Assembly: GCA_965205865.1 (NCBI GenBank)
Contig: CBDBHR010000014.1
Coordinates: forward strand, 1 to 14,244
Source: a bacterium
GTDB taxonomy: Bacteria > SAR324 > NAC60-12
DNA: 14,244 bases
Reading direction: 5' to 3'
Every line of letters begins with the position of its first letter. Position 1 is the stretch's first letter. The translations under genes and the position numbers were made by a program. Below the pieces are notes generated by a model, which was not told where the DNA came from, searched no databases, and was given only the letters and a program-made list of their open reading frames with translations. This document shows positions 3-12,823 of this stretch, piece after piece.

Positions 3-2196
3 GTGCTCTCAAGAACAACACGGGCGCTCAATGAGTTTCGCATTGAAGGAATCGCCACCTCGATTCCATTTTTACAAAACCTGCTGCAGCATCCTGAGGT
101 GGCTTCCTGGCAAGTGCATACCCGATTTGTCGAAGAGAACCTGACGACGCTCACTCAAATTGATCCAACTACCCAATCCCGCTACTTCAGCACGACCCAA
201 CCACCGTTGAGTGAGCAACCGGATATCCGCTCAGCTGGCTTGGCAGGTGCCCAGATTGATACCCTGGATCCCCTGGCTCTTTTCTCACATGATCAGACCA
301 TTATAAAGAGCCCAAAGCGAATCACGTTCAGAAGCTGAAACTGCCGCACCAGAGCTGGCCGGGCCCGACGGGACCATCGGCCTCCCTGTCCCCATTCAAG
401 GAACGATCGTCAGTGTCATGGTTGCTGAAGGAGACAGCATCAACCGGGGCCAACAACTGGCCGTCTTGGAAGCGATGAAAATGGAACATGTCATTTCAGC
501 CGATCGTAGCGGGATCATCCGGCGCATTACCCTGGCGGTTGGGGATGTCATCCGTGAGGGATATCCTCTATTTTTTATTGAAACCAGTGAAGGCCAAACC
601 GCTGCAGACGAGGTTGCCAAGACAATTGACTTGGATTATATCCGACCTGACTTAGAGGAGACCCACCAACGACATGCCTACACTTTAGACGAAAACCGGC
701 CTGAGGCGGTGGCCCGGCGCCGAAAAACCGGGCAACGGACAGCCCGGGAAAATATTATTGATCTTTGTGACCCTGACACTTTCTTCGAGTTTGGAGCTTT
801 TGCAGTAGCAGCGCAACGATCCCGACGAGATGAAGAATGGCTTCGCAAATACACGCCTGCCGATGGTTTATTAGCGGGTGTCGGAACGGTCAATGGGGAA
901 CTGTTTGAAGGACAGGATGCACGTTGTATGGCCATTGCCTATGATTACACCGTTTTAGCTGGGACACAAGGGATGCGAAATCATTACAAACAAGATCGCA
1001 TGTTTCAACTGGCGGATCGTTATCAATTACCGATGGTCATTTTCACAGAGGGAGGAGGTGGACGGCCTGGAGATACAGATGGCGCATCCCCCGTGGGCAT
1101 GGATGTTTACACCTTTACTCAGTTCTCTAAACTCAGTGGACTCGTACCGCTGGTTGGGGTCAACTCAGGACGCTGTTTTGCAGGCAACACGGCTCTGCTG
1201 GCTTGCTGTGATGTCATCATTGCCACCGCTAATTCCACCATCGCTATGGGGGGCCCCGCAATGATCGAGGGAGGAGGCCTCGGTATTTACACACCGGAAG
1301 AAGTCGGTCCCATGTCCATCCAAGTTCCGAACGGCGTCGTTGATATCCTGGTCGAAGATGAGGAAGCTGCGGTAGCCATAGCGAAAAAGTACCTTTCCTA
1401 CTTTCAAGGCCCCATCCCGGACTGGGAATCTCCGGACCAAAGGATTTTGCGGCACATTATTCCCGAGAACCGGGTAAGAATGTACAATGTGCGGGATATC
1501 ATTGAGACCCTGGCCGATCGCGATTCGGTGCTGGAAATCCGTGAAGATTTCGGTATTGGGATTATCACAGCGTTCATTCGCATTGAAGGCCGTCCACTGG
1601 GATTGATTGCCAATAATCCCCACCATCTGGCTGGAGCAATCGATAGTGACGGAGCTGATAAAGGAGCACGGTTTCTACAGCTTTGTGATGCTTTTGATCT
1701 TCCTATCGTGAGTTTGATGGACTGCCCCGGCATTATGGTTGGCCCTGAGGTGGAAGCCACCGCCTTGGTTCGACACAGCGCTCGACTCTTTAATACAGGC
1801 GCCAACCTTTCAGTTCCTCTGTTCGGATTAGTCTTAAGGAAAGGCTATGGGTTAGGGGTACAGGCGATGTGTGGAGGAAGCTCATTAGTTCCATTCTTCA
1901 CAGCGGCTTGGCCCACCGCGGAATTTGCTGGGATGAATATTGAGGGGGCGGTCAAACTAGGCTATCGCAAGGAATTAGCCGCGATAGAGGATCCGGAAGA
2001 ACGACGGATCAAATACGACGCTATGGTCGCCGAAAGCTATGAAAACGCGAGAGCTTTACACGCGGCCAGCTATTTCGGGATTGATGATGTCATCGACCCC
2101 GCTGATTCACGCCGTTGGATTGTGGCCGGTTTGCAGAGTGTCCCTTCCCCTCCACCTCGCACTGGTAAAAAGAGACCCTATGTCGACACATGGTAA
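3..2196 (+). pseudogene. Fused biotin-dependent acyl-CoA carboxylase (biotin carboxylase C-terminus + BCCP + carboxyltransferase), 5'-partial, frameshifted near 290-306
   Basis: Frame 3 (3-338) encodes a biotin carboxylase C-terminus (RALNEFRIEGIATSIPFL..HTRFVE). Frame 1 is open from 307 (RAQSES..PVPIQGTIVSVM) through the biotinylation motif EAMKM (469-483) and carboxyltransferase motifs (DYTVLAGTQG, EGGGGRPGD, DCPGIMVG) to TAA at 2194-2196. The break lies in the linker and could be a sequencing error. Confidence 0.88.
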
Positions 2197-2383
2197 GGAA
2201 TGAGGATTAAATAACTTCTGGATCTTTGAACAGAGTAAAAACTGGGGACATGTACAACAAACTTTGCCATTCACTGCCCAATGAGCTAAATGAAGCTCTT
2301 TGCTTAACGAAAAGTTAATCATAAACTGTTACGTGTCCCCTGGTTTTACGGATCACTTTCGGAAGTTATTAAATCCGGAGTCC
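2197..2383. mobile_element. MITE-like element A (187 bp) with 22-bp TIRs, apparent TAA target duplication and an internal inverted repeat
   Basis: Left end GGAATGAGGATTAAATAACTTC (2197-2218) matches the reverse complement of 2362-2383 (GGACTCCGGATTTAATAACTTC) at 18/22. TAA flanks both sides (2194-2196, the carboxylase stop, and 2384-2386). The inner IR 2235-2254 / 2330-2349 matches at 17/20. Confidence 0.75.
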
Positions 2384-2479
2384 TAAAGAGAAGAGAAGAA
2401 GCCCCAGGTTCTATTTTTAAAAAGCCTGTTAGCGTTAAATTTTAAGAAACCTTTATCCTTAGAAGGCACAGGAAACCTT

Positions 2480-3355
2480 ATGAATTCAGCATCCAAACAA
2501 TTTTCCGCTCTAAGCGGAATCATCGTGGTTGAGGTCGCAGGCGGTGTCGCGGGAGCGTACTGCGCGAAGCTCTTTGCCGACATGGGAGCTACGGTTTTGC
2601 GCATTGTCCCGGCAGAGGGCGATCCCATGGAAAGCGAACTGATTCACCCCGATGAGAGATCAACGCGCGGACTGTACGCTGCTTATCTCAACGCAGGAAA
2701 GCAGGTGGTTCCTCCGAACGCGGTGGATCAAGTCGACATTGCCCTTTACAACGCCCGCACTGCTGACTCGGCAAGCGACTGGGCGCGAGCCGGTACGCTT
2801 AGGCAACCGGCATCCGGTGCTGGTCCCACACGGATGCTTTCAGTGCCGTGGGGAAAATCGATGGATTGCAGTCGCGGTGGCTGACGGGCAAAGCTGGAAG
2901 GCACTTGCCGATATTATCGGGTGTCAAGATTTGCGCGACGATGCAACTCTACTTGAGAGTCCGGTCCGCCGTGCACGGCAAGCCGAGTTGGAGAGCGCCA
3001 TTGCGAACTGGACACTGGAAAAAGAGGCGCGCGAGGCCGCGTCCACGTTACAGGCCGCCGGAATCTTAGCCGCTCCGATTCACCATCTCGACGAAGTGGA
3101 ATCAGATCAGCACCTGGTTGCCAGGCAATTCTTCTATGCCATTGAACGCCCGCACGTGGGTCTGTAGATCCAAGGCGGATTGCCATTGACGGTCAACGGT
3201 GAACGATATCCGATGCGTGGACTGGCACCCTTGTTGGGTGGCAATTCCGCGGAAGTGCTGAAACGACTCGCGGATATAGATACGCAAAGCTTCGAGTCGT
3301 TACTGAACCGGGGATTGTGAGCTTGAAGCCGACCGAACTTCGAAAAGCTCGGTAG
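2480..3355 (+). pseudogene. Family III CoA-transferase (CaiB/BaiF-like) with internal deletion, nonsense codon and probable terminal frameshift
   Basis: The N-terminus LSGIIVVEVAGGVAGAYCAKLFADMGATVLRI..YLNAGK (frame 2) jumps near 2735-2745 into the C-terminal part LPFTTPALL..GREPVRLGNRHP..PHGCFQCRGENRWIAVAV (frame 3). After the in-frame TAG at 3165-3167, homology continues (APLLGGNSAEVL) to TGA at 3318-3320. One extra G in the run at 3310-3313 would extend it to TAG at 3353-3355. Confidence 0.85.
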
Positions 3356-3392
3356 CAGCGTGTCGTAAAATGGGGGAAGTTCAGGCCTGATA

Positions 3393-4241
3393 TTAGCCGT
3401 GATCGATATCTTTCTCTTGAAGGAGAGCACGCAACCGTTCGACTTCTGCAAGAGCTTTTTCTTCTCTTGCTAAGGCGTTTTCTTTCAGTTGTCGCTCTTG
3501 TTCTTTTTGTTCTCGCTCTTGTTCTTTTTGTTCTCGCTCTTGTTGGAGGCTTTTTAGGAGGAACGGTTGGTAGAGAGGATCTTCGATTAATTTTTCAAAG
3601 GGCACCTGTTTTTCTAAATCCTCAAGACGAAATGCGAAACGATCCAAGACCCTGGAATGAATCACGCTGGGCTCTTGGCTCTCCATACTTTCATAAACCC
3701 CCTGCTCATTGAGGGTATAGAAGGCCGTATGCTTGTGCAAGCGGTCTAATATATAATATTCAGGCACTCCCACTTGGGCGTATTCTTCTTTTTTGTGGAC
3801 CGTATCCCGTTCTACCTCCGTAGGATCCGAGTCGGATAAAAACTCAATACAGAGATCACAAACTCCACCAAAAGAACGATCCAACGGCTTGGCCTCGACA
3901 GGATTGGATTGGAGAATTACAGCCAAATCCGGTTTGCGAATACTGACCTTGTTCTTTCCCAGCTCCAAACGAAAGCCCATTTCCAATGCCATCATCCGTC
4001 CGATGGGAAAGACGGTTAAATATTCTTCTAATAAGCGGAAGAACCATTGATATAGAGAGATGCTTAAAAAATCGGGCATGGGCTTTTCCTCTAAGAGTCC
4101 ATTGTTCCATTCATATTGACAATCCGGGTGTTCATAATACGCCTTCCAATACTCGGCCTCACTGACCACGAGGGGCTCCTTGGAAGCGGGAGGCAAACGT
4201 CTTTGAGAGGAGTGGTTTTTGACGGATTCTAAAGTAGTCAT
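3393..4241 (-). CDS. Uma2 family (DUF820) PD-(D/E)XK putative endonuclease with coiled-coil tail
   Basis: Intact 282-aa ORF with motifs YEWNNGLLEEKPMP, RKPDLAV, DLCIEFLS and KKEEYAQVGVPEYYILD, and a QEREQKE-repeat tail. Confidence 0.9.
   Translation of the reverse strand: MTTLESVKNHSSQRRLPPASKEPLVVSEAEYWKAYYEHPDCQYEWNNGLLEEKPMPDFLSISLYQWFFRLLEEYLTVFPIGRMMALEMGFRLELGKNKVSIRKPDLAVILQSNPVEAKPLDRSFGGVCDLCIEFLSDSDPTEVERDTVHKKEEYAQVGVPEYYILDRLHKHTAFYTLNEQGVYESMESQEPSVIHSRVLDRFAFRLEDLEKQVPFEKLIEDPLYQPFLLKSLQQEREQKEQEREQKEQERQLKENALAREEKALAEVERLRALLQEKDIDHG
3492..3544. repeat. 21-bp tandem repeat (about 2.5 copies) encoding heptads in the Uma2 tail
   Basis: TCGCTCTTGTTCTTTTTGTTC at 3492-3512 and 3513-3533, with a partial copy at 3534-3544. 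Confidence 0.95.
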
Positions 4242-4365
4242 GACGCCCTCAATGGGAATGAGATGTGAAATTTGTCATCTTTTCAAAAGAATAACATATT
4301 GTGCGAAGGACTACAATTTCCCGTGAATCTCTTGAGAGAGGAAATAATGAGAAACGAGGCCATTC

Positions 4366-4471
4366 CCATTTTGACATCAACCCTCTTTATTCTAAAAAAT
4401 CTATGTCATGCTTAAATATTCCTCAGAATGGCACAGTGAGTGATCCTGATCGTCTACTCAAGCTATTCCTT
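4366..4471 (+). pseudogene. 106-bp internal remnant of an AraC-family gene, paralogous to 7381-7486
   Basis: Ungapped match to 7381-7486 with 8 mismatches in 106 bp. Encodes HFDINPLYSKKSMSCLNIPQNGTVSDPDRLLKLFL. Confidence 0.9.
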
Positions 4472-4733
4472 CTCGTGAGTGTTTTTCTTCCAAGGGGACA
4501 ATTTAGTAGAATACTAGGATGATTCCGACTGATTATTGATTTTCAGGAAGGAGTGTGATAATCAAAAATTCATGTCACATCCAAACGGGGGCCTCGGAGC
4601 CAGTGGTGTGTGTAATCAACATATGGCAAGTGCAGTGGCTTACCATGAGGGGCTCGAGTGAAAGAGTTAGGCTTTCTTTATTGGTTTATTTATTAAAATC
4701 TCGTAAACAAAATCTCTTACTTTAAGGGTCCCT

Positions 4734-5246
4734 ATGACAACAACTACCAAAATTACTTCCGGTTTTTGGCAGGAACGCCAAATGCTCAATCGAGACCACT
4801 CATTGCCTGCGATCATAAAAATTTTTGAAGACACCGGAAGGGTTCGTGTTCTCACCCAGGAACTGAAAGCCGAGGAAAAACAACACATTTTTTGGGAATC
4901 CGATTTGGCAAAATGGATGAAAGGGGCTCTCATTCACTTGCAGCAGGAACCTGATGAGGAATTGAACGCCTATGTTGAAAATCTGATCGACCAGCTGATT
5001 GCCAATACAGGAGTCTGACGGATATCTCAATTCGTTCTTCAGTTTCTACGAACCTCAAAATAAATTTACGAACCTAAAAGTCCGGCATAAACTTTACTGC
5101 GCTGGCCATTTATTGGAAGCGGCCATAGAACATCTGAAATTGCATGGTACCAGTCGTTTCTTTGAAGCAAGGCCACATTTATTCCCTATTTCCTTTGGGC
5201 CAATCGAGGAGAAAGTGAGATGCTGGTTTGGATCAACGAAAATTAA
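4734..5246 (+). pseudogene. Glycoside hydrolase family 127 (beta-L-arabinofuranosidase-like, DUF1680) with frameshift and large internal deletion
   Basis: N-terminal GH127 motifs (ITSGFWQERQ, FWESDLAKW, QESDGYLNS, HKLYCAGHLLEAA) with a frameshift near 5000-5008. At about 5169 the sequence jumps to the family's extreme C-terminal motif ATFIPYFLWANRGESEMLVWINEN-stop (frame 3, 5172-5246). Confidence 0.88.
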
Positions 5247-5310
5247 ATCCGGTTTTCACCCAACAAAATAAGATTGACAGAGCATTAGTCTCTTTTAAGA
5301 ACCCTTTACC

Positions 5311-5988
5311 ATGAAGAAAACCATGAAATATTTTGAAACTGAACCGGCACCCGGCAATTTTGGCAAACGCATTCTCGGTCTCAACCTTTCAGAACCGCAA
5401 ACTCCTGAGGTCCTCAAAGCGCTGTTTTCTACCCTCTATGAGCATCGTTTTTTGGTGATTCCAGGACAAGACTTGACCCAGGATCAATACCTCCAGTTTG
5501 GAGAGTCGTTTGGCACACCGATCCCCCATGTGGTGGACCAGGACCGCTTGGAGGAATACCCTGGTATCACGACCATCCATAATAGGACGCAGGAAAAGAA
5601 AAAATATGTTGATGGCGCCGCGTGGTGGCACACAGACCAATCCTATGAAACCCAACCGGCCATCACGACGATGTTGTATTCTGTGCAAGCGCCTAAAAAA
5701 GGAGGAGAAACCCGAATTGCCGATATGGTTGCCGCCTATGAGGCCCTTTCGGATTCCATGAAATCCCGCATTGCGGATCTGGAAGTCGAACATTTATACG
5801 GGAAAGGCATTGCTCTTCAGAAAGACGATATCCCAACCCCTTCTCTTTCTGAAGCGCAGAGCAAGCGGGTTCCTCCCGTTAGACACAAATTAGTGCGTCC
5901 TCATCCGGTGACTGGCCAAAAAACCTTGTATTCTCCGGCAGGCACCAGTCAGGGAATCCAGGGGAGGCCATATCCTTTTCTCTTGTAA
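5311..5988 (+). pseudogene. TauD/TfdA-family Fe(II)/2-oxoglutarate dioxygenase, C-terminally truncated
   Basis: Contains WHTDQSY (HxD), GGETRIADMVAAYEALS and HKLVRPHPVTGQKTLY. Homology ends near 5965, before the WDNRxxxH...R segment that supplies the third iron ligand. Confidence 0.85.
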
Positions 5989-6030
5989 TTTGGTTTTGTC
6001 TCTCCTACAATGCGCATTATTATGTGCACA
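5983..6030 (+). promoter_or_regulatory. Putative sigma70 promoter and operator palindromes of the antitoxin-mazF operon
   Basis: TTGTAA (5983-5988), 17-bp spacer, TACAAT (6006-6011). Palindromes AATGCGCATT (6009-6018) and TGTGCACA (6023-6030). RBS AAGGAG at 6033-6038. Confidence 0.55.
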
Positions 6031-6043
6031 GAAAGGAGATATG

Positions 6044-6265
6044 ATGAAAAAACGACTGAACATTACCCTAGAAGAAGACATATATTTTGGTCTCCATCAG
6101 ATGATTGGGCATCGTCGGATCAGCCAATTCATAGAAAACCTGATTCGTCCTCATGTAATTCAAGAAGATCTGGAAGCGGCTTATCGTGAAATGGCGGCTG
6201 ATGATGAGCGAGAACAAGCAGCATTGGAGTATGCGGAAAACACCATTCAGGACCTGGATATATGA
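6044..6265 (+). CDS. Type II antitoxin (ribbon-helix-helix-like), partner of the downstream MazF
   Basis: MKKRLNITLEEDIY..ISQFIENLIRPHV..LEAAYREMAADDERE with an acidic C-terminus, an RBS, and an ATGA overlap with the toxin. Alternative start at 6041. Confidence 0.85.
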   Translation: MKKRLNITLEEDIYFGLHQMIGHRRISQFIENLIRPHVIQEDLEAAYREMAADDEREQAALEYAENTIQDLDI

Positions 6266-6588
6266 GGCGGGGCGAAGTCTGGTGGGTCGATTTTAGCTTT
6301 ACTATTGGTGGAGAAATCAAGAAAAATCGTCCATCGGTTATTATCAGCAATAATAGCGCCAATAAAGTGTTGAATAGAATCCAAGTTGTTCCCCTGACCA
6401 CTAAAAAAACAGAAAGAGTGTATCCTAGTGAAGCAGCGATCTTCATCAAAGGGAAAAAACATAAAGCCATGACCGATCAGATTGACACCGTTACCAAACA
6501 ACGGGTCCTCAATAAAATCGAGAAATTAACCGATTCAGAAATATCCCGGATTGAGCAAGCTTTGAAAGTGCAACTTGGGTTGAACTAG
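6262..6588 (+). CDS. mazF: PemK/MazF-family endoribonuclease toxin
   Basis: MRRGEVWWVDF..GGEIKKNRPSVIISNN..VVPLTT..DQIDTVTKQR; intact 108 aa. Confidence 0.93.
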   Translation: MRRGEVWWVDFSFTIGGEIKKNRPSVIISNNSANKVLNRIQVVPLTTKKTERVYPSEAAIFIKGKKHKAMTDQIDTVTKQRVLNKIEKLTDSEISRIEQALKVQLGLN

Positions 6589-6679
6589 TACCGAAAGAGA
6601 ACCCCCGAAGCAGGAGATTCCCCTGCTCAAAACAGGTCTTGCAGCATCAAAAGATAATTTATGCCCCCTTCTTACCCTC

Positions 6680-6887
6680 CCTAAATTGAGCGATTCTATA
6701 AAAGAATCAGATTATTATGACGCTATATTCCCCGTCAGACCGGTACAAACTCTTGTATATTTCCCATAAAGCTCTCTACCCGTTGGGTTGTGCTCGATTC
6801 TATCGAAACAACAGTATTACTCACTGATATAAAATACTTTTTCTCCACGAGTAATAGATTTTTTTGTCATGAATCGCTCAATTTAGG
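6680..6887. mobile_element. MITE-like element D (208 bp) with perfect 17-bp TIRs
   Basis: CCTAAATTGAGCGATTC (6680-6696) is the exact reverse complement of GAATCGCTCAATTTAGG (6871-6887). The interior is non-coding and AT-rich. No clean target duplication seen. Confidence 0.6.
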
Positions 6888-6985
6888 CCCCTATTTATTA
6901 TTTGAAGGAAATTTTCGATAACCTTTTGCGATAAAATCACAAACGAATCCAAGGTTGGGATTTTCGGCGAGTTGAGAGAAACAGT

Positions 6986-7021
6986 TGTTCAAAGTTCCGG
7001 AAATGATTTAATCCTCATTCC
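6986..7021 (-). repeat. Second copy of the element A terminus (solo end)
   Basis: The reverse complement GGAATGAGGATTAAATCATTTCCGGAACTTTGAACA matches 2197-2232 at 32/36. It is flanked by TAA at 7022-7024. Confidence 0.85.
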
Positions 7022-7036
7022 TAAAGAATTTTGATG

Positions 7037-7065
7037 TTGACCCCCGCTCAAAAAGGAAGTAAAAG
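7037..7065 (+). promoter_or_regulatory. Possible sigma70 promoter of the AraC gene
   Basis: TTGACC, 17-bp spacer, TAAAAG, about 60 bp upstream of ATG 7127. Motif match only. Confidence 0.3.
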
Positions 7066-7126
7066 GTCTATTTCCAGAGAATAAGAGGACAATTCCGATT
7101 TTAATGTTTAATTTTCCAATGAGACG

Positions 7127-7600
7127 ATGGAACTTATTATTGAAGAGGGGCTCTCCGTCCGGAGTCAAATCGCAGGATTATTCAATTCTCGAGGCGTGGG
7201 TTCGCATCCCACACGCACAATGACTTGCCATGAGCTTATTTACGTCCATCAGGGTTGTCTCCCCATACGGGAAGAGGGACAGGAATTCGAAATTAAAGAA
7301 GGAGAATATTTGATTTTGTTCCCTCAGCGACACCATGGAGGCACTGCTCCTTATCCGGAAGACTTACAATTTTATTGGATCCATTTTGACATCATCCCTC
7401 TTTATTCTAAAAAACCTATTTCATGCTTCAATATTCCCCAATATGGCACAGTGAGTGATCCTGATCGTCTACTCAAACTATTCCTTTGGTTTTTAGAGGA
7501 GCAAGGATCGAGGCGTCTTCGCCAAAATGTGGCAGATCTTCTGCTTGCCCTGATGCTGGAAAAAGTCAACAATCCCTCAATCTCACCAATCATTCCATAG
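7127..7600 (+). pseudogene. AraC-family regulator, ligand-binding (cupin) domain only; HTH domain lost
   Basis: GLFNSRGVGSHPTRTMTCHELIYVHQG..LILFPQRHHGG..LQFYWIHF. It ends at 157 aa where binding-protein sequence begins. Confidence 0.8.
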
Positions 7601-8370
7601 CTTTATCTGCGAGAGAGAGAATTGACGTGGTAAACATTGACCTGGTTAATGTGCCGTACTATGCAGCAGTGGGAGCCTTGTCAGATATGACTGATTTTCT
7701 GAAAGGGAAGACCTACTACGATAAGCTTAACAAAGCTATGTTGGCATTAGGTACGCTCGAGGGGAAACATTTCGCTGCACCAAACGCGGCAGATGTTTCA
7801 GCGTTTGCTTACAACAAAAAATTGTTAAAGCAGTATGGCTTTGATGGTCCACCAAAAAATTATGCTGACATGCTCACCATGTGTAAGGCATTCGCAGGTA
7901 CAGGAAAGTTTTTCATGGCATGGCCTTCAGTAAGCACTGGGGGAATGATCTTTACGTTTCAGCCGATGGCATGGGCGAACGGCGGCTCGTGGATCAGCAA
8001 GGATGGGAAAAAAATGGAGATCAATCATCCCAAGAACCGAGAAGCGTATGCTCACTATTTGAAGATGCTCGATATGGGATGTGTACCAAAAAATGTGGCT
8101 GCATGGGATTGGCCCGACAAGCAGGATGGGTTTCTGGCAGGTGATGTTGCCATGATCGGCACAGGTAATTTCATGATCAATCAAGTCAAGGATCATCTGG
8201 ATAAGGTTGATCCGGGATTCACCCCTTTTTTCAGTAAGGACGGAAGCAGGAAATCCGCTTTTGTAGGAGGAGACCTGATTGCGGTACCAGCCACTACAGG
8301 CAATAAGGAAGCCGCCTTGGAGTACATCAACTTCGTCTTGTCTCGCGAAGGACAAGTCGATGTTTTTTTC
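7597..8370 (+). pseudogene. Sugar ABC transporter substrate-binding protein, internal fragment lacking the signal peptide, N-terminus and C-terminus
   Basis: IALSARERIDVVNID..AFAYNKKLLKQYGFDGPPKNYADML..FLAGDVAMIGTG..FVGGDLIAVP..AALEYINFVLSREGQ, within ORF 7486-8784. The first 37 or so codons of that ORF are out-of-frame AraC DNA. Confidence 0.85.
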
Positions 8371-8784
8371 ACTGGCGAAAGGGCATTGTGGGCTGTGAAT
8401 ATCATGGTCACGTGGAAGTATGCAGGCATTCAAATGGTCATCTTGATCGCAGGCATGCAGAGTATTCGGGACGATTTGTACGAAGCCTCAACGCTGATAG
8501 GAGCATCACGTTTCCAGAACGTCATTTACATTACTGCGCCGCTGCTCAAGCACTCAACAGCACTGGCTTTGGTGATATCAATCGCAGGATCAATTCAAGC
8601 CTTTGAGCAGTTTTTCATAATGACATCAGGGGGGCCTGCGAATCAGACCAGAACTTTGATGATGTTAACTATAGATACAGCCTTTAATTTTGGCAAACAG
8701 GGTCCAGCATCTGCGATCTCAACATTCATCGTGCTCATCATATTTGCCGTGACTGTCGTGCAGTTGAAGTTATTTAAGAGGTAG
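8365..8784 (+). pseudogene. Carbohydrate ABC permease (MalF-like), C-terminal half, fused in frame to the binding-protein fragment
   Basis: ALWAVNIMVTWKYAGIQMVILIAGMQSI..LYEASTLIGA (EAA loop)..QAFEQFFIMTSGGPANQT. The N-terminal transmembrane helices are absent. Confidence 0.85.
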
Positions 8785-8785
8785 T

Positions 8786-9676
8786 ATGAGATTTTATATC
8801 TATGAAAAATACTTATATTACGGTTTTGCATACAGTTTGGTTATAATTGCTGTTTTTCCAGTCTATTGGACACTGATTTCTTCCCTGAAAGTTCCAAGTG
8901 AGTTGATCACCAGTTCCCCTACATTTTTTCCTGAAAAATTCACTTTTGAATACTACATTGATGTCTGGAATCTAGATAATACCGGATTGAAGGATGGCGA
9001 AACAATAGTTCATGATAAACCTCCGATAGGGTTGGTCGACGCATTTTTGAATAGTACAATCGTATCTATTGGCACAATCATTTTGAGTGTCATTCTAACA
9101 ACATTAACTGGGTATTCGTTATCAATGTTTCAATTGCCGTTTAAAAATCTATTCTTCATTCTTCTGATTTTTCCTATCTTGGTGCCAAATCTGTCACTGG
9201 CGGTGCCCTTGTATAAATTACTAAAAGATATTGGTCTCTTAGATACCCATTTGGCGTTAATTTTCATTCATACCGTCGCCATGCTCCCATTGGGAACATT
9301 CATGATGAGGAATTCATTTGATTCCATACCAAAATCTCTCAGAGAAATATCAATCCTTGAGGGAGCCGGTGAACTTAAAATCATTGTGACTGTGATGTTG
9401 CCATTGGCACTTCCTGGATTGTTGACGGTCATGGTATTTGCGTTATTCATTTCATGGAACGACTACCTGATGGCATTCATTATGACAAATAAACCTGAGA
9501 TGACCATGCTGAACGTGGCCTTATCCAAGATTGCCAGAGGAGGATCTCAGTTCGAGATGAAATGGGGGCATTTAACTGCTGGTTCCATGATTAGTTTTCT
9601 CCCAATTATTATATTTTATACCGTCTTGCAGCGATATTTTGTAAGAGGGGTCACTGGAAGTGCAGTAAAAGAGTAA
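8786..9676 (+). CDS. Carbohydrate ABC transporter permease (MalG-like)
   Basis: Intact, hydrophobic 296 aa with FPVYWTLISSLK, the EAA-type loop SIPKSLREISILEGAG, WNDYL and LQRYFVRGVTGSAVKE. Confidence 0.93.
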   Translation: MRFYIYEKYLYYGFAYSLVIIAVFPVYWTLISSLKVPSELITSSPTFFPEKFTFEYYIDVWNLDNTGLKDGETIVHDKPPIGLVDAFLNSTIVSIGTIILSVILTTLTGYSLSMFQLPFKNLFFILLIFPILVPNLSLAVPLYKLLKDIGLLDTHLALIFIHTVAMLPLGTFMMRNSFDSIPKSLREISILEGAGELKIIVTVMLPLALPGLLTVMVFALFISWNDYLMAFIMTNKPEMTMLNVALSKIARGGSQFEMKWGHLTAGSMISFLPIIIFYTVLQRYFVRGVTGSAVKE

Positions 9677-9678
9677 AG

Positions 9679-10731
9679 ATGCCTAATTTGACTTTAAAAA
9701 ATGTAACCAAAAAATGGAAAGAAATCACGGGTGTCAATAACGTTTCCCTCAACATCAACGACGGGGAATTCATTGTTCTGCTGGGACCCTCAGGATGTGG
9801 AAAAACAACCACGATGCGTTTGATTGCAGGATTGGAGGAAATCACAGAGGGTGAGATCTATATTGGGGATGAATTGGTGAATGATGTTGATCCGAGGAAA
9901 AGGGATGTTGCCATGGTCTTTCAGAATTATTCACTATTTCCGCACATGAGCGTGCGAAACAACTTAGCCTATCCACTGAAGATAAAAAGATTTTCCAAAG
10001 AAGCACAGAAAAAACTCATCCAAGACGTCGCAGACCTTGTTGAATTGGGCGAATTATTGGATCGTAAACCTGCAGAATTGTCTGGGGGTCAGCGACAACG
10101 TGTCGCTTTAGGAAGAGCGTTGATCAGAAAACCAAAGGTGTTCTTGATGGATGAACCCTTATCGAACCTGGATGCAATATTGAGATTATCAATGCGTTCA
10201 GAACTAAAAAATCTTCATCATAAATTACCGGTAACCACAATCTATGTTACTCACGATCAGGTTGAGGCGATGACTTTGGCAGATAGAATCGCAGTCATGA
10301 GCCAAGGCAATCTCCTCCAATTTGATGATCCACATATAATTTATGACCAACCAAAGAATAGTTTTGTGGCTGGATTTATCGGCAACCCCGCCATGAACCT
10401 GATTGATGGGACGATAGAAAATAATGAATTCAAATCCCATTTATTGAAATTCAAAATCAATACTGAAAATAGAGATGAAGTGACGATGGGGGTAAGGCCC
10501 CAAAATATTAAAATTTGTAGCGCAGCAGACGCTTTTGGTAATGGGCGCATTTTTTCTTCAGAAATGACAGGAGAAGATACAATCATCACTATTGAGTCGG
10601 GTGACAAGCAAATAATCATTAAAGAAGATCCTGCTTTTACGGGAGAAATCGACGAAATGGTACATTTTAATTTTGATTTGTCGAATTGTCATTTTTTCGA
10701 ATCAGAAAGTGGTAACCGCATTACTATATAA
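9679..10731 (+). CDS. Carbohydrate ABC transporter ATP-binding protein (MalK/UgpC family)
   Basis: Walker A GPSGCGKTT, signature LSGGQRQR, Walker B FLMDEPLSNLD, H-loop VTHDQ, and a TOBE-like C-terminus. Confidence 0.95.
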   Translation: MPNLTLKNVTKKWKEITGVNNVSLNINDGEFIVLLGPSGCGKTTTMRLIAGLEEITEGEIYIGDELVNDVDPRKRDVAMVFQNYSLFPHMSVRNNLAYPLKIKRFSKEAQKKLIQDVADLVELGELLDRKPAELSGGQRQRVALGRALIRKPKVFLMDEPLSNLDAILRLSMRSELKNLHHKLPVTTIYVTHDQVEAMTLADRIAVMSQGNLLQFDDPHIIYDQPKNSFVAGFIGNPAMNLIDGTIENNEFKSHLLKFKINTENRDEVTMGVRPQNIKICSAADAFGNGRIFSSEMTGEDTIITIESGDKQIIIKEDPAFTGEIDEMVHFNFDLSNCHFFESESGNRITI

Positions 10732-10768
10732 ATGATATGCGAATCAGGAGTTGAAATTTAATTTATAA

Positions 10769-10781
10769 AATCAATATTTTA
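10769..10781 (+). promoter_or_regulatory. IHF-binding consensus inside element B
   Basis: AATCAATATTTTA is an exact match to WATCAANNNNTTR and is preceded by an AT tract. Confidence 0.5.
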
Positions 10782-10792
10782 ATAACTATGAT

Positions 10793-10870
10793 GTGTCATG
10801 CCGGACTTGATCCGGCATCCAAAATATCGCCCGTATCCCCCTGGATTCCGGGGCAAGCCCGGAATGACAC
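10793..10870. repeat. Inverted doublet of GTCA-type REP-like palindromes, copy 1
   Basis: GTGTCATGCCGGACTTGATCCGGCATCCA (10793-10821) and TGGATTCCGGGGCAAGCCCGGAATGACAC (10842-10870). Each forms a hairpin and the two are inverted relative to each other. Confidence 0.88.
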
Positions 10871-10907
10871 GTTTTTTAACTCCTGATTCACGTAAATGAT
10901 ATAATGG

Positions 10908-10939
10908 AGTCGTCATGAGTCATTCTTGATGGCTTTTTT
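10908..10939 (+). terminator. Putative intrinsic terminator of the ABC operon
   Basis: AGTCGTCATGA-GTCAT-TCTTGATGGCT stem (G-U pairs, one mismatch) followed by a T run. Confidence 0.5.
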
Positions 10940-10983
10940 AAATGTAAACCTTCACCAATGGCAGAACGATGAGAAAAGAAGAA

Positions 10984-11088
10984 TATGCACTAGGAGAATC
11001 AAATGTGATTCCACCCGCTCATTTTTTTAGAAAAGAAGAGAGCGAATACACCAATTATGCACTAGCAGAACAAAATGTAAATCCACCC
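10984..11088 (+). repeat. Imperfect 33-bp direct repeat with a 72-bp period upstream of the GRE gene
   Basis: TATGCACTAGGAGAATCAAATGTGATTCCACCC (10984-11016) and TATGCACTAGCAGAACAAAATGTAAATCCACCC (11056-11088) match at 28/33. AGAAAAGAAGA occurs upstream of each. Confidence 0.85.
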
Positions 11089-11115
11089 GAATGTTTATCA
11101 TCGGGAAGGAACTGG

Positions 11116-12607
11116 ATGGAAGACAAGCTTGCTGCCTTCAAGCAGGATATTCTTCTAGGCAATAAAGAATTCTGTTTTATAAAACGTTTGAAAGTTCAAC
11201 AGAGAGTGAAAGCGGAGCTTTCTGATGTTGCTATTGATGAAAGATATGTCCAGGCGCTGGAGTGGATGCTGGAGGATTTGTCGACGCCTTTGGTAGAAGG
11301 AGAGGTGTTGGCCGGACGAATGGTCGAAGGCCCGTGGCCCCATGAAATGGAGGCTCCAAAAATGCCAGAAGAGGGGGGCGTTCCGGCTGAAGTGGCCTAT
11401 CCTTTTTTCCCAAGATCAGCAAGGAAGACGCTTGTAATTACAGCTTTACCGCCTGTAACCGCATTGACCTTCCGGGCCTCATGTCAACCTTTATGACCGG
11501 TAATGAGAACTTCCACGTCATGCCAACATGGCTCCTGGCTGCTTTGAACGGCGGCCATGCTGTTGAAGACAGTTACGCCTTACATGACCAAGGATACCAT
11601 GATCTGGACATTGATCCAGACGCTTGGAACATCCCGGGGGCGGGGGGCCCGGTGGGCGCGCTTCCAAAAGTCCAACCAGTTGAAGGGATAATCCCCTTGG
11701 ATCAGACCAGATCTATGGAGGACTTCCTGAGCAATTTCCGTCTTCTGGTCGAAGCTGGGGTCGCCCATGCGCACAAGAATGCCGTGGAGCAACATAGAAG
11801 ATTTGAACCCCCGGAAACATTTCATTTTGATTCGGTCTTGATGCATGATTCCCTGGAAAAATGCCTGGATATTACGCAAGGCGGGATGCGCTATCCTACG
11901 GACATCCATCTTTTTTTGGGTCTGGCCACCGTTGCCGATTCTCTGACGGCCATCAATCAGCTGGTTTTTGAGGAAAAGCGGTATTCCTTGCCGGAGTTCA
12001 TGGCCATCGTCAGAAACAACTTTGAGGGTCATGATAAGTTGCGGAGGGAGATTTTGTATCAATTTCCGCGTTACGGTAACGACAAAGAAGCGGCTGACCG
12101 CTGGGCCGTGGTTGTTTCCGACCTTGTCCTGGATGTGCTCCATTGCACAGAAGGCGAACCGAACTACACCCTCATTCCCACAATTTATTCATTGTTCCTC
12201 AGTCATAAGTTGGGGGACGCGTATCCGGCTACCCCCGACGGACGCAAGCGGGGAGAATCCATCAGTGAAAACCAATCACCAACCCACGGGGCCGATGTGG
12301 ACGGAGTGACCTCTTGTTTGCGAAGCGCGGCAAAAATTCCAAACGGGCGCACCGTGGAAAGCGGCTTGAATCTCCGCTTAGTGGAAAACTCGACCCGGAA
12401 CGGTTTATGGCTTTGGCAGAAACCTTCTTCGATCTGGGAGGACAGCATCTTGGTGTTTCCCTGACAGATGTTGATACCCTCAAGGCAGCCGTTGAAAGCC
12501 CTGAAGAGCACCTGGATCTTGAAGTCTGCGTTACAGGTTACAGCGCCTTTTTCACGGGGCTTGGAGAAAAAACCCAGCAAGACATTATAGACCGAACCGA
12601 CCATTAA
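11116..12607 (+). pseudogene. Glycyl radical enzyme (PFL-like superfamily) with internal deletion and frameshift
   Basis: The N-terminal part (ERYVQALEWMLEDLSTPLVEGEVLAG, frame 1; start 11116 with RBS, or 10969) jumps near 11413 to frame 3: ISKEDACNYSFTACNRIDLPG..GLATVADSLTAI..PRYGND..ATPDGRKRGESISEN. A one-base loss near 12378 follows, then the Gly loop VCVTGYSAFF..QDIIDRTDH in frame 2. Confidence 0.9.
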
Positions 12608-12786
12608 GTAATAGGACAAAATTAAACTGGTATTTTGTTTTGTCATTCCTGGCTTGCCCGGGAATCCAGGGAATCAATTGAAGCCCCCTGGATACCGGAT
12701 CAAGTCCGGTATGACACAATCATCATGAATGTAAGATATACTTACAAATCTTCATTCAAAATCATGGAATAATTTTGTCTAGGTAC
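12608..12786. mobile_element. MITE-like element C (179 bp) with 17-bp TIRs, TTAA (or TA) flanks and REP doublet
   Basis: GTAATAGGACAAAATTA (12608-12624) matches the reverse complement of 12770-12786 (GTACCTAGACAAAATTA) at 13/17. TTAA lies at 12604-12607 (including the GRE stop) and 12787-12790. Confidence 0.68.
12641..12717. repeat. Inverted doublet of GTCA-type REP-like palindromes, copy 2 (opposite orientation to copy 1)
   Basis: TGTCATTCCTGGCTTGCCCGGGAATCCA (12641-12668) and TGGATACCGGATCAAGTCCGGTATGACAC (12689-12717). Confidence 0.88.
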
Positions 12787-12823
12787 TTAATTGAGAATTT
12801 TTTAACGGATGTGAGAGATCTTT

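Follow-up and report, generated by a model that had tools for sequence, protein, structure and literature searches.

Three flanked nested palindromes on a SAR324 contig as probable miniature transposons with hairpin-repeat interiors

Organization of the locus

The DNA examined in this study (hereafter the window) is a stretch of 14,244 nucleotides that makes up the entire contig C14 (CBDBHR010000014.1) of an uncultured SAR324 bacterium, whose genome (G000; assembly GCA_965205865.1) amounts to 4.74 Mb in 30 contigs, with 48% G+C and a completeness of 92%. Three short palindromic elements, termed A, B and C, lie directly behind genes in this window. An original prediction, made from the sequence, described them as transposable elements of the miniature inverted-repeat kind (MITEs) at TAA stop codons, in which interchangeable outer shells surround a palindromic cargo. 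The observation itself, that A, B and C are nested palindromes with matching flanks, was confirmed, and the predicted coordinates proved exact to the base. The central result is that one doublet of repetitive extragenic palindromes (REPs) forms the core of at least two unrelated MITE families and probably also of a third element (C), and that a second family of hairpin repeats fills a fourth shell.

The source genome was compared with that of a congener (G001), with genomes from other genera of the same family (G007 and G008) and with further genomes named below. Contigs of G000 are written as C followed by a number, fetched loci as L and sequencing runs as X. The features of the window that concern the three elements are as follows.

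2194 to 2196, forward strand: TAA stop codon of the carboxyltransferase gene (open reading frame, ORF, 418-2196; Carboxyl_trans and Biotin_lipoyl domains), which is the left target copy of A
2197 to 2383, no strand assigned: element A, a 187-bp MITE with ends at 2197-2218 and 2362-2383; the right TAA is at 2384-2386
2235 to 2349, no strand assigned: inner inverted pair of A and interior, with arms at 2235-2255 and 2329-2349
6986 to 7021, reverse strand: lone shell-A end, matching 2196-2232, followed by TAA at 7022-7024
10729 to 10737, forward strand: left target copy TAAATGATA of B, which holds the TAA stop (10729-10731) of the ABC ATPase gene (ORF 9679-10731; ABC_tran)
10738 to 10892, forward strand: element B, a 155-bp MITE with ends at 10738-10756 and 10874-10892; the identical right 9-mer TAAATGATA is at 10893-10901
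10795 to 10868, no strand assigned: REP doublet in B, with units at 10795-10820 (forward) and 10843-10868 (reverse), from unit scans and the hairpin fold
12604 to 12607, forward strand: left TTAA of C, which holds the TAA stop of the glycyl-radical enzyme fragment (ORF 12314-12607; Gly_radical)
12608 to 12786, no strand assigned: element C, 179 bp; the right TTAA is at 12787-12790
12642 to 12715, no strand assigned: REP doublet in C, inverted relative to that of B, with units at 12642-12667 (forward) and 12690-12715 (reverse)

As predicted, the stop codon of the upstream gene is inside the left target copy in all three cases. The terminal inverted arms measure 23 nt at 83% complementarity in A, 21 nt at 86% in B and 35 nt at 71% in C. 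When the best ungapped inverted match of the flanks was compared with 1000 mononucleotide shuffles, the observed score was attained by 0 (A), 1 (B) and 2 (C) of them. All three elements fold as nested hairpins, with z values of -5.4, -7.3 and -4.9 for A, B and C, respectively, and none of 200 shuffles folded as well. B and C share one REP pair, which is oppositely oriented in the two (matches of 31 nt, 94%, and 30 nt, 93%), and the shell-A end recurs at 6986-7022 as a 37-nt match of 89% to 2196-2232. Homology to C4:6001-5426 (96%) begins at 7023, exactly beyond this lone end.

A search against Rfam returned nothing at the gathering score in the window. The look-alikes obtained with permissive settings (MIR821, 26 bits versus 249; Wolbachia sRNA 46, 25 bits versus 65) were dismissed as chance or shared palindromy. 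In a terminator scan, neither the B doublet nor the C doublet was among the sites reported.

Element B belongs to a 155-bp MITE family

Element B is a member of a real family of 155-bp MITEs with AT-rich target duplications of 8-9 bp. In G000 it is present as a single copy, together with one decayed relic at C28:588833-588948. Matches to the whole element numbered 44 in G001, 41 in G007, 29 in G016 and 21 in G010 among the candidates scored, which were 40 per genome out of 211, 70, 72 and 66, respectively; those in G010 consist for the most part of the doublet only. For the core of the B end, G001 yielded 135 matches, G007 yielded 63 and G016 yielded 29, compared with 0, 0 and 3, respectively, for a reversed-pattern control. 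Twenty-five copies from G000, G001, G007, G016 and G010 could be aligned end to end; the likeness runs from ATGCGAATC[AC]GGAGTT through the mirrored right end and stops there, and the flanks are unrelated. The direct repeats flanking these copies are AT-rich and mostly 6-9 nt long, or 8-9 nt once shared end bases are allowed for.

Two loci that are filled by B in G001 are empty in G000 (L033 versus C29:346349, and L073 versus C28:451870-451877). The L073 pair is the cleaner of the two: the 8-bp sequence ATCCCATA is duplicated in G001, and a single near-identical copy, ATCCCTTA, is present in G000. At the window locus itself, a contig from run X7 has no B and carries 40 other letters in place of 10723-10933. 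This contig shows approximately 96 differences in 2376 bases and therefore comes from a related population. Read by eye across window positions 10723-10737, the ABC ATPase frame of that population appears to be five codons longer and to end in TAG, and the TAA in the B target copy may not be the ancestral stop of the gene.

REP sequence is present in each of the 25 aligned copies, as the doublet or, where the form is short, as a single unit. No B shell devoid of REPs was found in this bacterial family, and the short forms in G001 and G007 retain one. Some copies in G001 contain extra REP-like sequence within the first REP, and in approximately seven long forms from the same genome the first REP contains, or adjoins, a 570-bp cassette that includes a 23S_rRNA_IVP gene. 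The cassette, whose gene encodes a 120-aa 23S_rRNA_IVP protein of the four-helix-bundle type, is itself multi-copy; it is found in G001 at loci L081-L087 and in G000 at C28:617521-618087, C28:623185-623750, C25:38229-38795 and C4:52388-52952.

An exact-match scan of one genome per species located the B end in 32 stretches. One complete metagenome-assembled genome (MAG) record accounts for 19 of these, a record under the title SAR324 cluster bacterium for 9, and two Saprospiraceae-titled records (loci L146 and L163) for 4. In one of the latter two, B ends surround an element of approximately 200 bp with a different interior, which supports the predicted interchangeability of shells and cargo. 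The occurrence of B ends in MAGs of this title suggests either cross-phylum transfer of a parent element or mis-binning. Two Saprospiraceae-titled CALLVG records were uninformative, as they have only 63 bases at the B end in common. B-like ends at C16:6349 and C26:284231 were rejected; both flanks are shared, and the two are duplicates of one locus.

Element A belongs to a family with 3-bp target duplications

Element A is likewise a member of a real MITE family, with 3-bp TAA/TTA target duplications. The A end pattern GGAATGAGRATTAAATAACTTCC, searched with up to 3 mismatches, gave 31 matches in G007, 46 in G008 and 2 in G000; it gave none in 42 other genomes of the family, and the reversed-pattern control gave 0. 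The loci fetched from G007 and G008 contained 19 distinct paired copies of approximately 96, 157, 210 and 745 bp, whose interiors vary among size classes and differ from that of the window copy. These interiors of shell A, like the recurrence of the doublet in B, C and a further shell, D (described below), bear out the prediction that shells and interiors can be combined in different ways. The flanking trinucleotides are identical in 11 of the 19 copies (4 TAA, 4 TTA, and ATA, AAA and CTA once each), so that TAA or TTA accounts for 8 of the 11. Three-bp duplications of TNA or TWA are a group feature of Tourist-like and IS5-family MITEs, and the flanks of A agree with it. As for a DDE transposase of the IS5 or PIF/Harbinger type, the ORFs beside the A end had no transposase match in Pfam or NCBIfam.

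In terms of its interior, A differs from the other two elements of the window, as it carries no REP of the B/C family. Its inner arms belong to a family of hairpins whose motif, TTGGGGACA[CT]GTA, has 260 matches in G000, and positions 2260-2349 are 89% identical to C30:340413-340502. At one locus in G008, an A end runs straight into a pair of frameshifted ORFs (331 and 197 aa), the sole family match of which is DUF6399. This ORF has 16 matches in G008, many of them at contig ends. Because the other end of the element was not found, the locus is regarded as a candidate parent of A and no more.

Element C behaves as a unit that is present or absent

A second full copy of C is located at C30:313367-313572. 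The homology between this copy and the window copy extends into both flanks, which marks it as a segmental duplicate of the entire locus that provides no evidence of transposition. A 2501-nt contig from run X7 lies on window positions 11403-12607 and resumes at 12792, thereby omitting 184 bases that correspond to element C, one TTAA and one further T. Element C thus behaves as a discrete unit that is either present or absent, and insertion is the simpler reading. The TTAA on both sides is possibly part of the arms rather than a duplication. A tblastn search of G000 for the glycyl-radical enzyme tail and its activase returned C14 and C30 only, and for this reason G000 offers no internal empty site for C.

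The left end of shell C resembles, with 4 mismatches, a sequence present in 38 identical copies. This likeness was rejected as a coincidence, since it falls in the coding part of an insertion sequence and not at its end. The insertion sequence in question (found, e.g., at C6:2259 and C30:675) has at least 38 copies in G000 that are identical across the 140 bases shown.

A REP doublet as the core of several shells

The REP family of B and C comprises 126 units in G000, 65 of them distinct, which form 37 convergent doublets with a start-to-start spacing of 49 nt in 19 cases and 48 nt in 5. By our own reading of the scans, the flanks assign 15 of the 37 doublets to family D, 1 to B and 2 to C; another 9 lie between genes of paralogous ABC operons, 2 belong to a pair of similar loci, and the remaining 8 are single. 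The doublets within B or D shells therefore number 16. Apparent shells 'E' and 'F' around the nine operon doublets were rejected, as they are spacers of paralogous ABC-transporter genes and not MITEs.

Family D is a further MITE family of approximately 275 bp, with sharp ends from CAATGGTTCTGAC to GTTAGAAGTATTG, imperfect terminal repeats, flanking repeats of 5-7 bp and the doublet as its fixed core. G000 has 11 copies that cover at least 217 bases, and G007 has one full copy at 78%; none was found in G001, as far as it was searched. The amplified shell thus differs among the relatives, being B in G001 and G007 and D in G000, and the doublet is common to all. The half of D that contains the doublet is also found in tandem arrays, with four 182-bp units at C30:1022169-1022839 and two at C28:311863-312251. 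One D copy, at C29:691756-691956, lacks the doublet; it retains TGTGTCAT and shows a 3-base CAT overlap at the junction when compared with full copies. This is the sole with/without pair that bears on an insertion of the doublet without target duplication.

The REP stems appear to be maintained by compensatory change. Stem pair 5-21 is C-G in 28 units, T-A in 25, G-C in 6 and A-T in 2, and 434 of 520 cells pair. Over 500 shuffles the number of paired cells averaged 344 and never attained the observed value, although palindromic search variants used in the REP scan favour paired stems in this count.

These findings can be set against the explanation that the doublets never entered MITEs. Parent insertion sequences would have carried the doublet in a non-coding end from the outset, and copies without it would be later deletions. 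Such an origin would account for the REPs present in every aligned B copy, for the off-centre position of the doublet near the right end of B, and for the REP head TGTGTCAT kept by the doublet-less D copy. However, it requires that two or three unrelated insertion sequences, at least, all had this doublet in their ends, no parent element of this kind was seen, and the B ends in another phylum enclose a non-REP interior. We consider an inherited doublet unlikely.

Transposase genes and stop codons

The original prediction went further, to a two-tier system. It was taken here as a dedicated one, in which doublets mobilized by a REP-associated tyrosine transposase (RAYT) would actively enter MITEs, and TAA stop codons would be the sites to which the composites are directed, or at which they are specially retained, for the sake of a useful 3' hairpin. 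The stop codon within the left target copy of all three window elements, their strong hairpin folds and the compensatory changes in the REP stems are all consistent with such a system, as is the extra REP-like sequence within the first REP of some G001 copies of B. Doublets are also located in ABC-transporter operon spacers, and spacers of transporter operons are a classic place of mRNA-stabilizing REPs.

The proposed link to a RAYT was not borne out, however. None of the 15 Y1_Tnp matches in G000 has a REP of the family beside it. Around the 14 Y1 genes examined, no such REP is present up to a distance of 2.5 kb, in a genome that is 92% complete and from which the gene may be missing; the nearest case is one REP-like unit 816 nt behind the Y1 gene at C26:138345-139331. 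Most of the Y1 genes are multi-copy and encode proteins of 312-328 aa fused to a DnaA C-terminal domain. These proteins are nearest to the REP-associated transposase model but fall below the RAYT cut-off (65-71 bits versus 80). Five copies, 99% identical, of a 312-aa protein of this Y1-DnaA-C-terminal type are encoded within 24 kb at C29:722062-745918, each repeat unit measuring approximately 1.06 kb. Of the 260 matches to TTGGGGACA[CT]GTA, the motif of the second hairpin family, none comes within 600 bp of any of the 14 Y1 genes examined.

Targeting of stop codons also failed to find support in the families. A stop codon is overlapped by 1 of the 19 other A copies, with three more having a stop within 10 nt, and by 2 of the 23 other B copies, compared with approximately 3% expected. 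The null on which this comparison rests is crude, as ORFs of at least 100 aa were taken as genes with 78% coding; under it, 3.5% of tolerated TAA/TTA sites are TAA stops, and for AT-rich 9-mers the share that begins at a stop is approximately 0.5% in each of approximately seven tolerated registers. The family counts do not exceed this null, and targeting of stop codons is not supported. Together with the fact that A carries no REP of this family, these results make the dedicated two-tier system improbable, and nothing in the data shows more than the nesting of independent repeats.

Setting of the elements on the contig

Contig C14 is a mosaic, in which most segments have counterparts of 91-96% identity on other contigs (C24, C26, C4, C30 and C17), and many of its genes are fragments. 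Examples are a CoA-transferase in two pieces, pieces of GH127, a fusion of a solute-binding protein with a permease, and a glycyl-radical enzyme that is out of frame, as is its activase. Both shell-A ends of the window (near 2200 and at 7022) are located exactly at homology breakpoints with other contigs. As both ends fall on segment borders, there is a hint that A elements took part in the rearrangements of the contig.

This patchwork, with its broken genes, its breakpoints at both shell-A ends and a second copy of C that is a segmental duplicate, would be expected if the elements were not mobile at all and were chance inverted repeats, artefacts of metagenome-bin assembly or products of segmental duplication. 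Such an explanation is at odds with the tens of copies in other genomes, which have unrelated flanks and target duplications, and with the empty sites seen for B and C. It also conflicts with the sequencing data. Contigs from several runs cover parts of the window, none of those listed spanning it whole, and the probable source run holds a near-exact copy, with 0-1 differences in 5 of the 8 listed pieces and 4-6 in the other 3. Record 1 of this run (1-2336) crosses the left junction of A and includes 140 of its 187 bases, and record 5 (7541-10766) crosses the left junction of B. For A and B this explanation is already largely refuted, and overall we regard it as very improbable. The parts of the window left uncovered in runs X2, X3 and X7, and the lack of a joint across A, were uninformative. 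Joints at 11989->12343 and 11576->11665 were rejected as variation at the locus, as they match the C30 paralogue.

Two other features of the window were recorded. A fourth MITE of 208 bp with perfect 17-nt terminal repeats is located at 6680-6887; a 99.5% copy at C10:111428-111634 is flanked by TTTTA on both sides. The right-hand 140 nt of this MITE correspond to the end of an insertion sequence with approximately 30 copies in G000. On the reverse strand, 3393-4241 contains a gene resembling Uma2-family endonucleases, of which G000 has about a dozen copies with 83-87% DNA identity. Three tandem 21-nt repeats are located in the region of this gene at 3480-3542, where contigs of run X7 vary in length.

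Discussion

In this study, A and B were found to belong to mobile families, target duplications were present, empty sites were seen for B and C, and the same doublet was found in three or four shells. The best explanation, which we hold to be probable, is that A, B and C represent miniature non-autonomous transposons of three unrelated kinds, with nested hairpin-repeat interiors. Each would depend on a different target-duplicating transposase acting in trans: A would be Tourist-like and duplicate TAA or TTA, B would duplicate 8-9 AT-rich bases, and C would duplicate, or end in, TTAA. The shells would use DDE-type enzymes. The interiors are copies of the genome's own hairpin repeats, namely the REP doublet in B and C and a pair from the second hairpin family in A, which would have become nested in the shells and then been copied at each transposition of the shell; nesting would have come first and amplification second. 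The hairpins may act as 3' RNA or DNA structures. The position at stop codons would result from AT-rich targets that contain TAA, from a duplication that rebuilds the end of the gene, and from selection against insertions within genes. On this best explanation, a large share of the REP doublets in this bacterial family multiply as passengers of MITEs.

Several observations weigh against this explanation. Many copies with unrelated flanks were found for A (in G007 and G008) and B (in G001, G007 and G016) but not for C, which has its segmental duplicate only and no independent second copy of its shell in G000 or 40 relatives. Empty sites with a single target copy were found for B and, in the form of the X7 joint, for C, but no clean one was found for A. 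The C24 paralogue and three paralogue ends in G001 lack A, yet their downstream sequence differs too. The joint at C is one base short of the expected empty site and could reflect a precise deletion of the palindrome, and the X7 joints come from contigs placed at 88% likeness, which represent a related organism. For the doublet-less copy of D, a deletion fits as well as a state that was never filled. The search for full-length elements yielded the DUF6399 locus in G008 for A, where no right end was found within 2.5 kb, and nothing for B, C or D; no transposase was found between B ends, where the long forms hold only the 23S_rRNA_IVP gene, and none with matching ends was seen for C or D. Finally, three of three window elements lie on stop codons, which is above the rates in their families. 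This local excess is attributed to TAA-rich targets, to a duplication that rebuilds the gene end and to the way in which the window was picked.

In comparison with known systems, MITE families with common ends and differing interiors, REPINs, bacterial interspersed mosaic elements (BIMEs) and REPs as landing sites of insertion sequences are already well known. Less familiar is the situation described here, in which two or three unrelated target-duplicating elements have one REP doublet in common as their constant core. Shell A resembles Tourist-like and IS5-family MITEs in being short and non-coding, in its 22-23-nt terminal repeats that start with GG, in its 3-bp TAA/TTA duplications and in its many size classes with common ends. 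It differs from them in that no IS5- or Harbinger-type DDE enzyme was found, only the DUF6399 ORF beside an end, and in that the interior of the window copy is a hairpin pair from another repeat family.

The doublets share with REPINs, as outlined in the parts of Bertels and Rainey (2011; PMC3116915) drawn on here, the arrangement of two inverted REPs with a short spacer in one long hairpin, a number of copies in the tens, and stems kept by compensatory change. They differ in that no Y1 gene flanked by these REPs was found in G000, and in that at least 16 of the 37 doublets are within target-duplicating elements, which is outside the REPIN model as it is presented there. BIMEs of E. coli are mosaics of REPs and other short motifs (PMC3733652, in part). 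Like them, the repeats described here consist of alternating REPs joined to other conserved blocks, often behind genes and in transporter operons; unlike in the BIMEs of that account, what surrounds the REPs is in each case an entire MITE, which has terminal repeats and target duplications of its own.

REPs also serve as targets of insertion sequences, as sections of Tobes and Pareja (2006; PMC1525189) and of a report on ISPpu9 (PMC12288879) describe. The 570-bp cassette in or beside the first REP of B in G001 is a comparable case of mobile DNA in REPs. Whereas in those accounts the insertion sequence is usually inside the REP, it is here mainly the REP doublet that is inside the MITE. A further comparison is with TIRYT/TIRtron elements, in which terminal inverted repeats with the motif GGGGWSAS surround tyrosine-transposase genes (Di Nocera et al. 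2013; PMC3733652, in part). The inner right arm of A, GGGGACAC on the opposite strand, fits this motif as given there, and both systems involve an abundant paired hairpin family. In contrast, the last letter of the inner left arm, GGGGACAT, is off the motif, and the hairpin family showed no proximity to the Y1 genes checked. No description of REP doublets as MITE cores was found in the literature searched, which included parts of PMC3733652 and PMC3184786 and covered the field incompletely.

In summary, the elements are ordinary MITEs with an uncommon habit, that of amplifying hairpin repeats as passengers. REPs and MITEs are usually treated as separate repeat classes with separate enzymes. 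If capture and co-amplification are common, the copy numbers and the 'population genetics' of REPs could not be read as the work of RAYTs alone, and annotation tools for MITEs that mask REPs would split such elements. The insertion polymorphisms of B and C can be used as strain markers in these uncultured bacteria. A more speculative reading, which we put forward only tentatively, is that REP-type hairpin repeats in this bacterial family changed their vehicle, from their own tyrosine transposase to a life as fixed passengers of several unrelated target-duplicating MITEs. The doublet would then be a built-in hairpin that makes insertions behind genes harmless or useful, in a mutualism of two selfish repeats. 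If true, such a change would account for the position of most doublets in shells, for bursts that differ between lineages (B in G001 and G007, D in G000) and for the clustering of the elements at the ends of genes.

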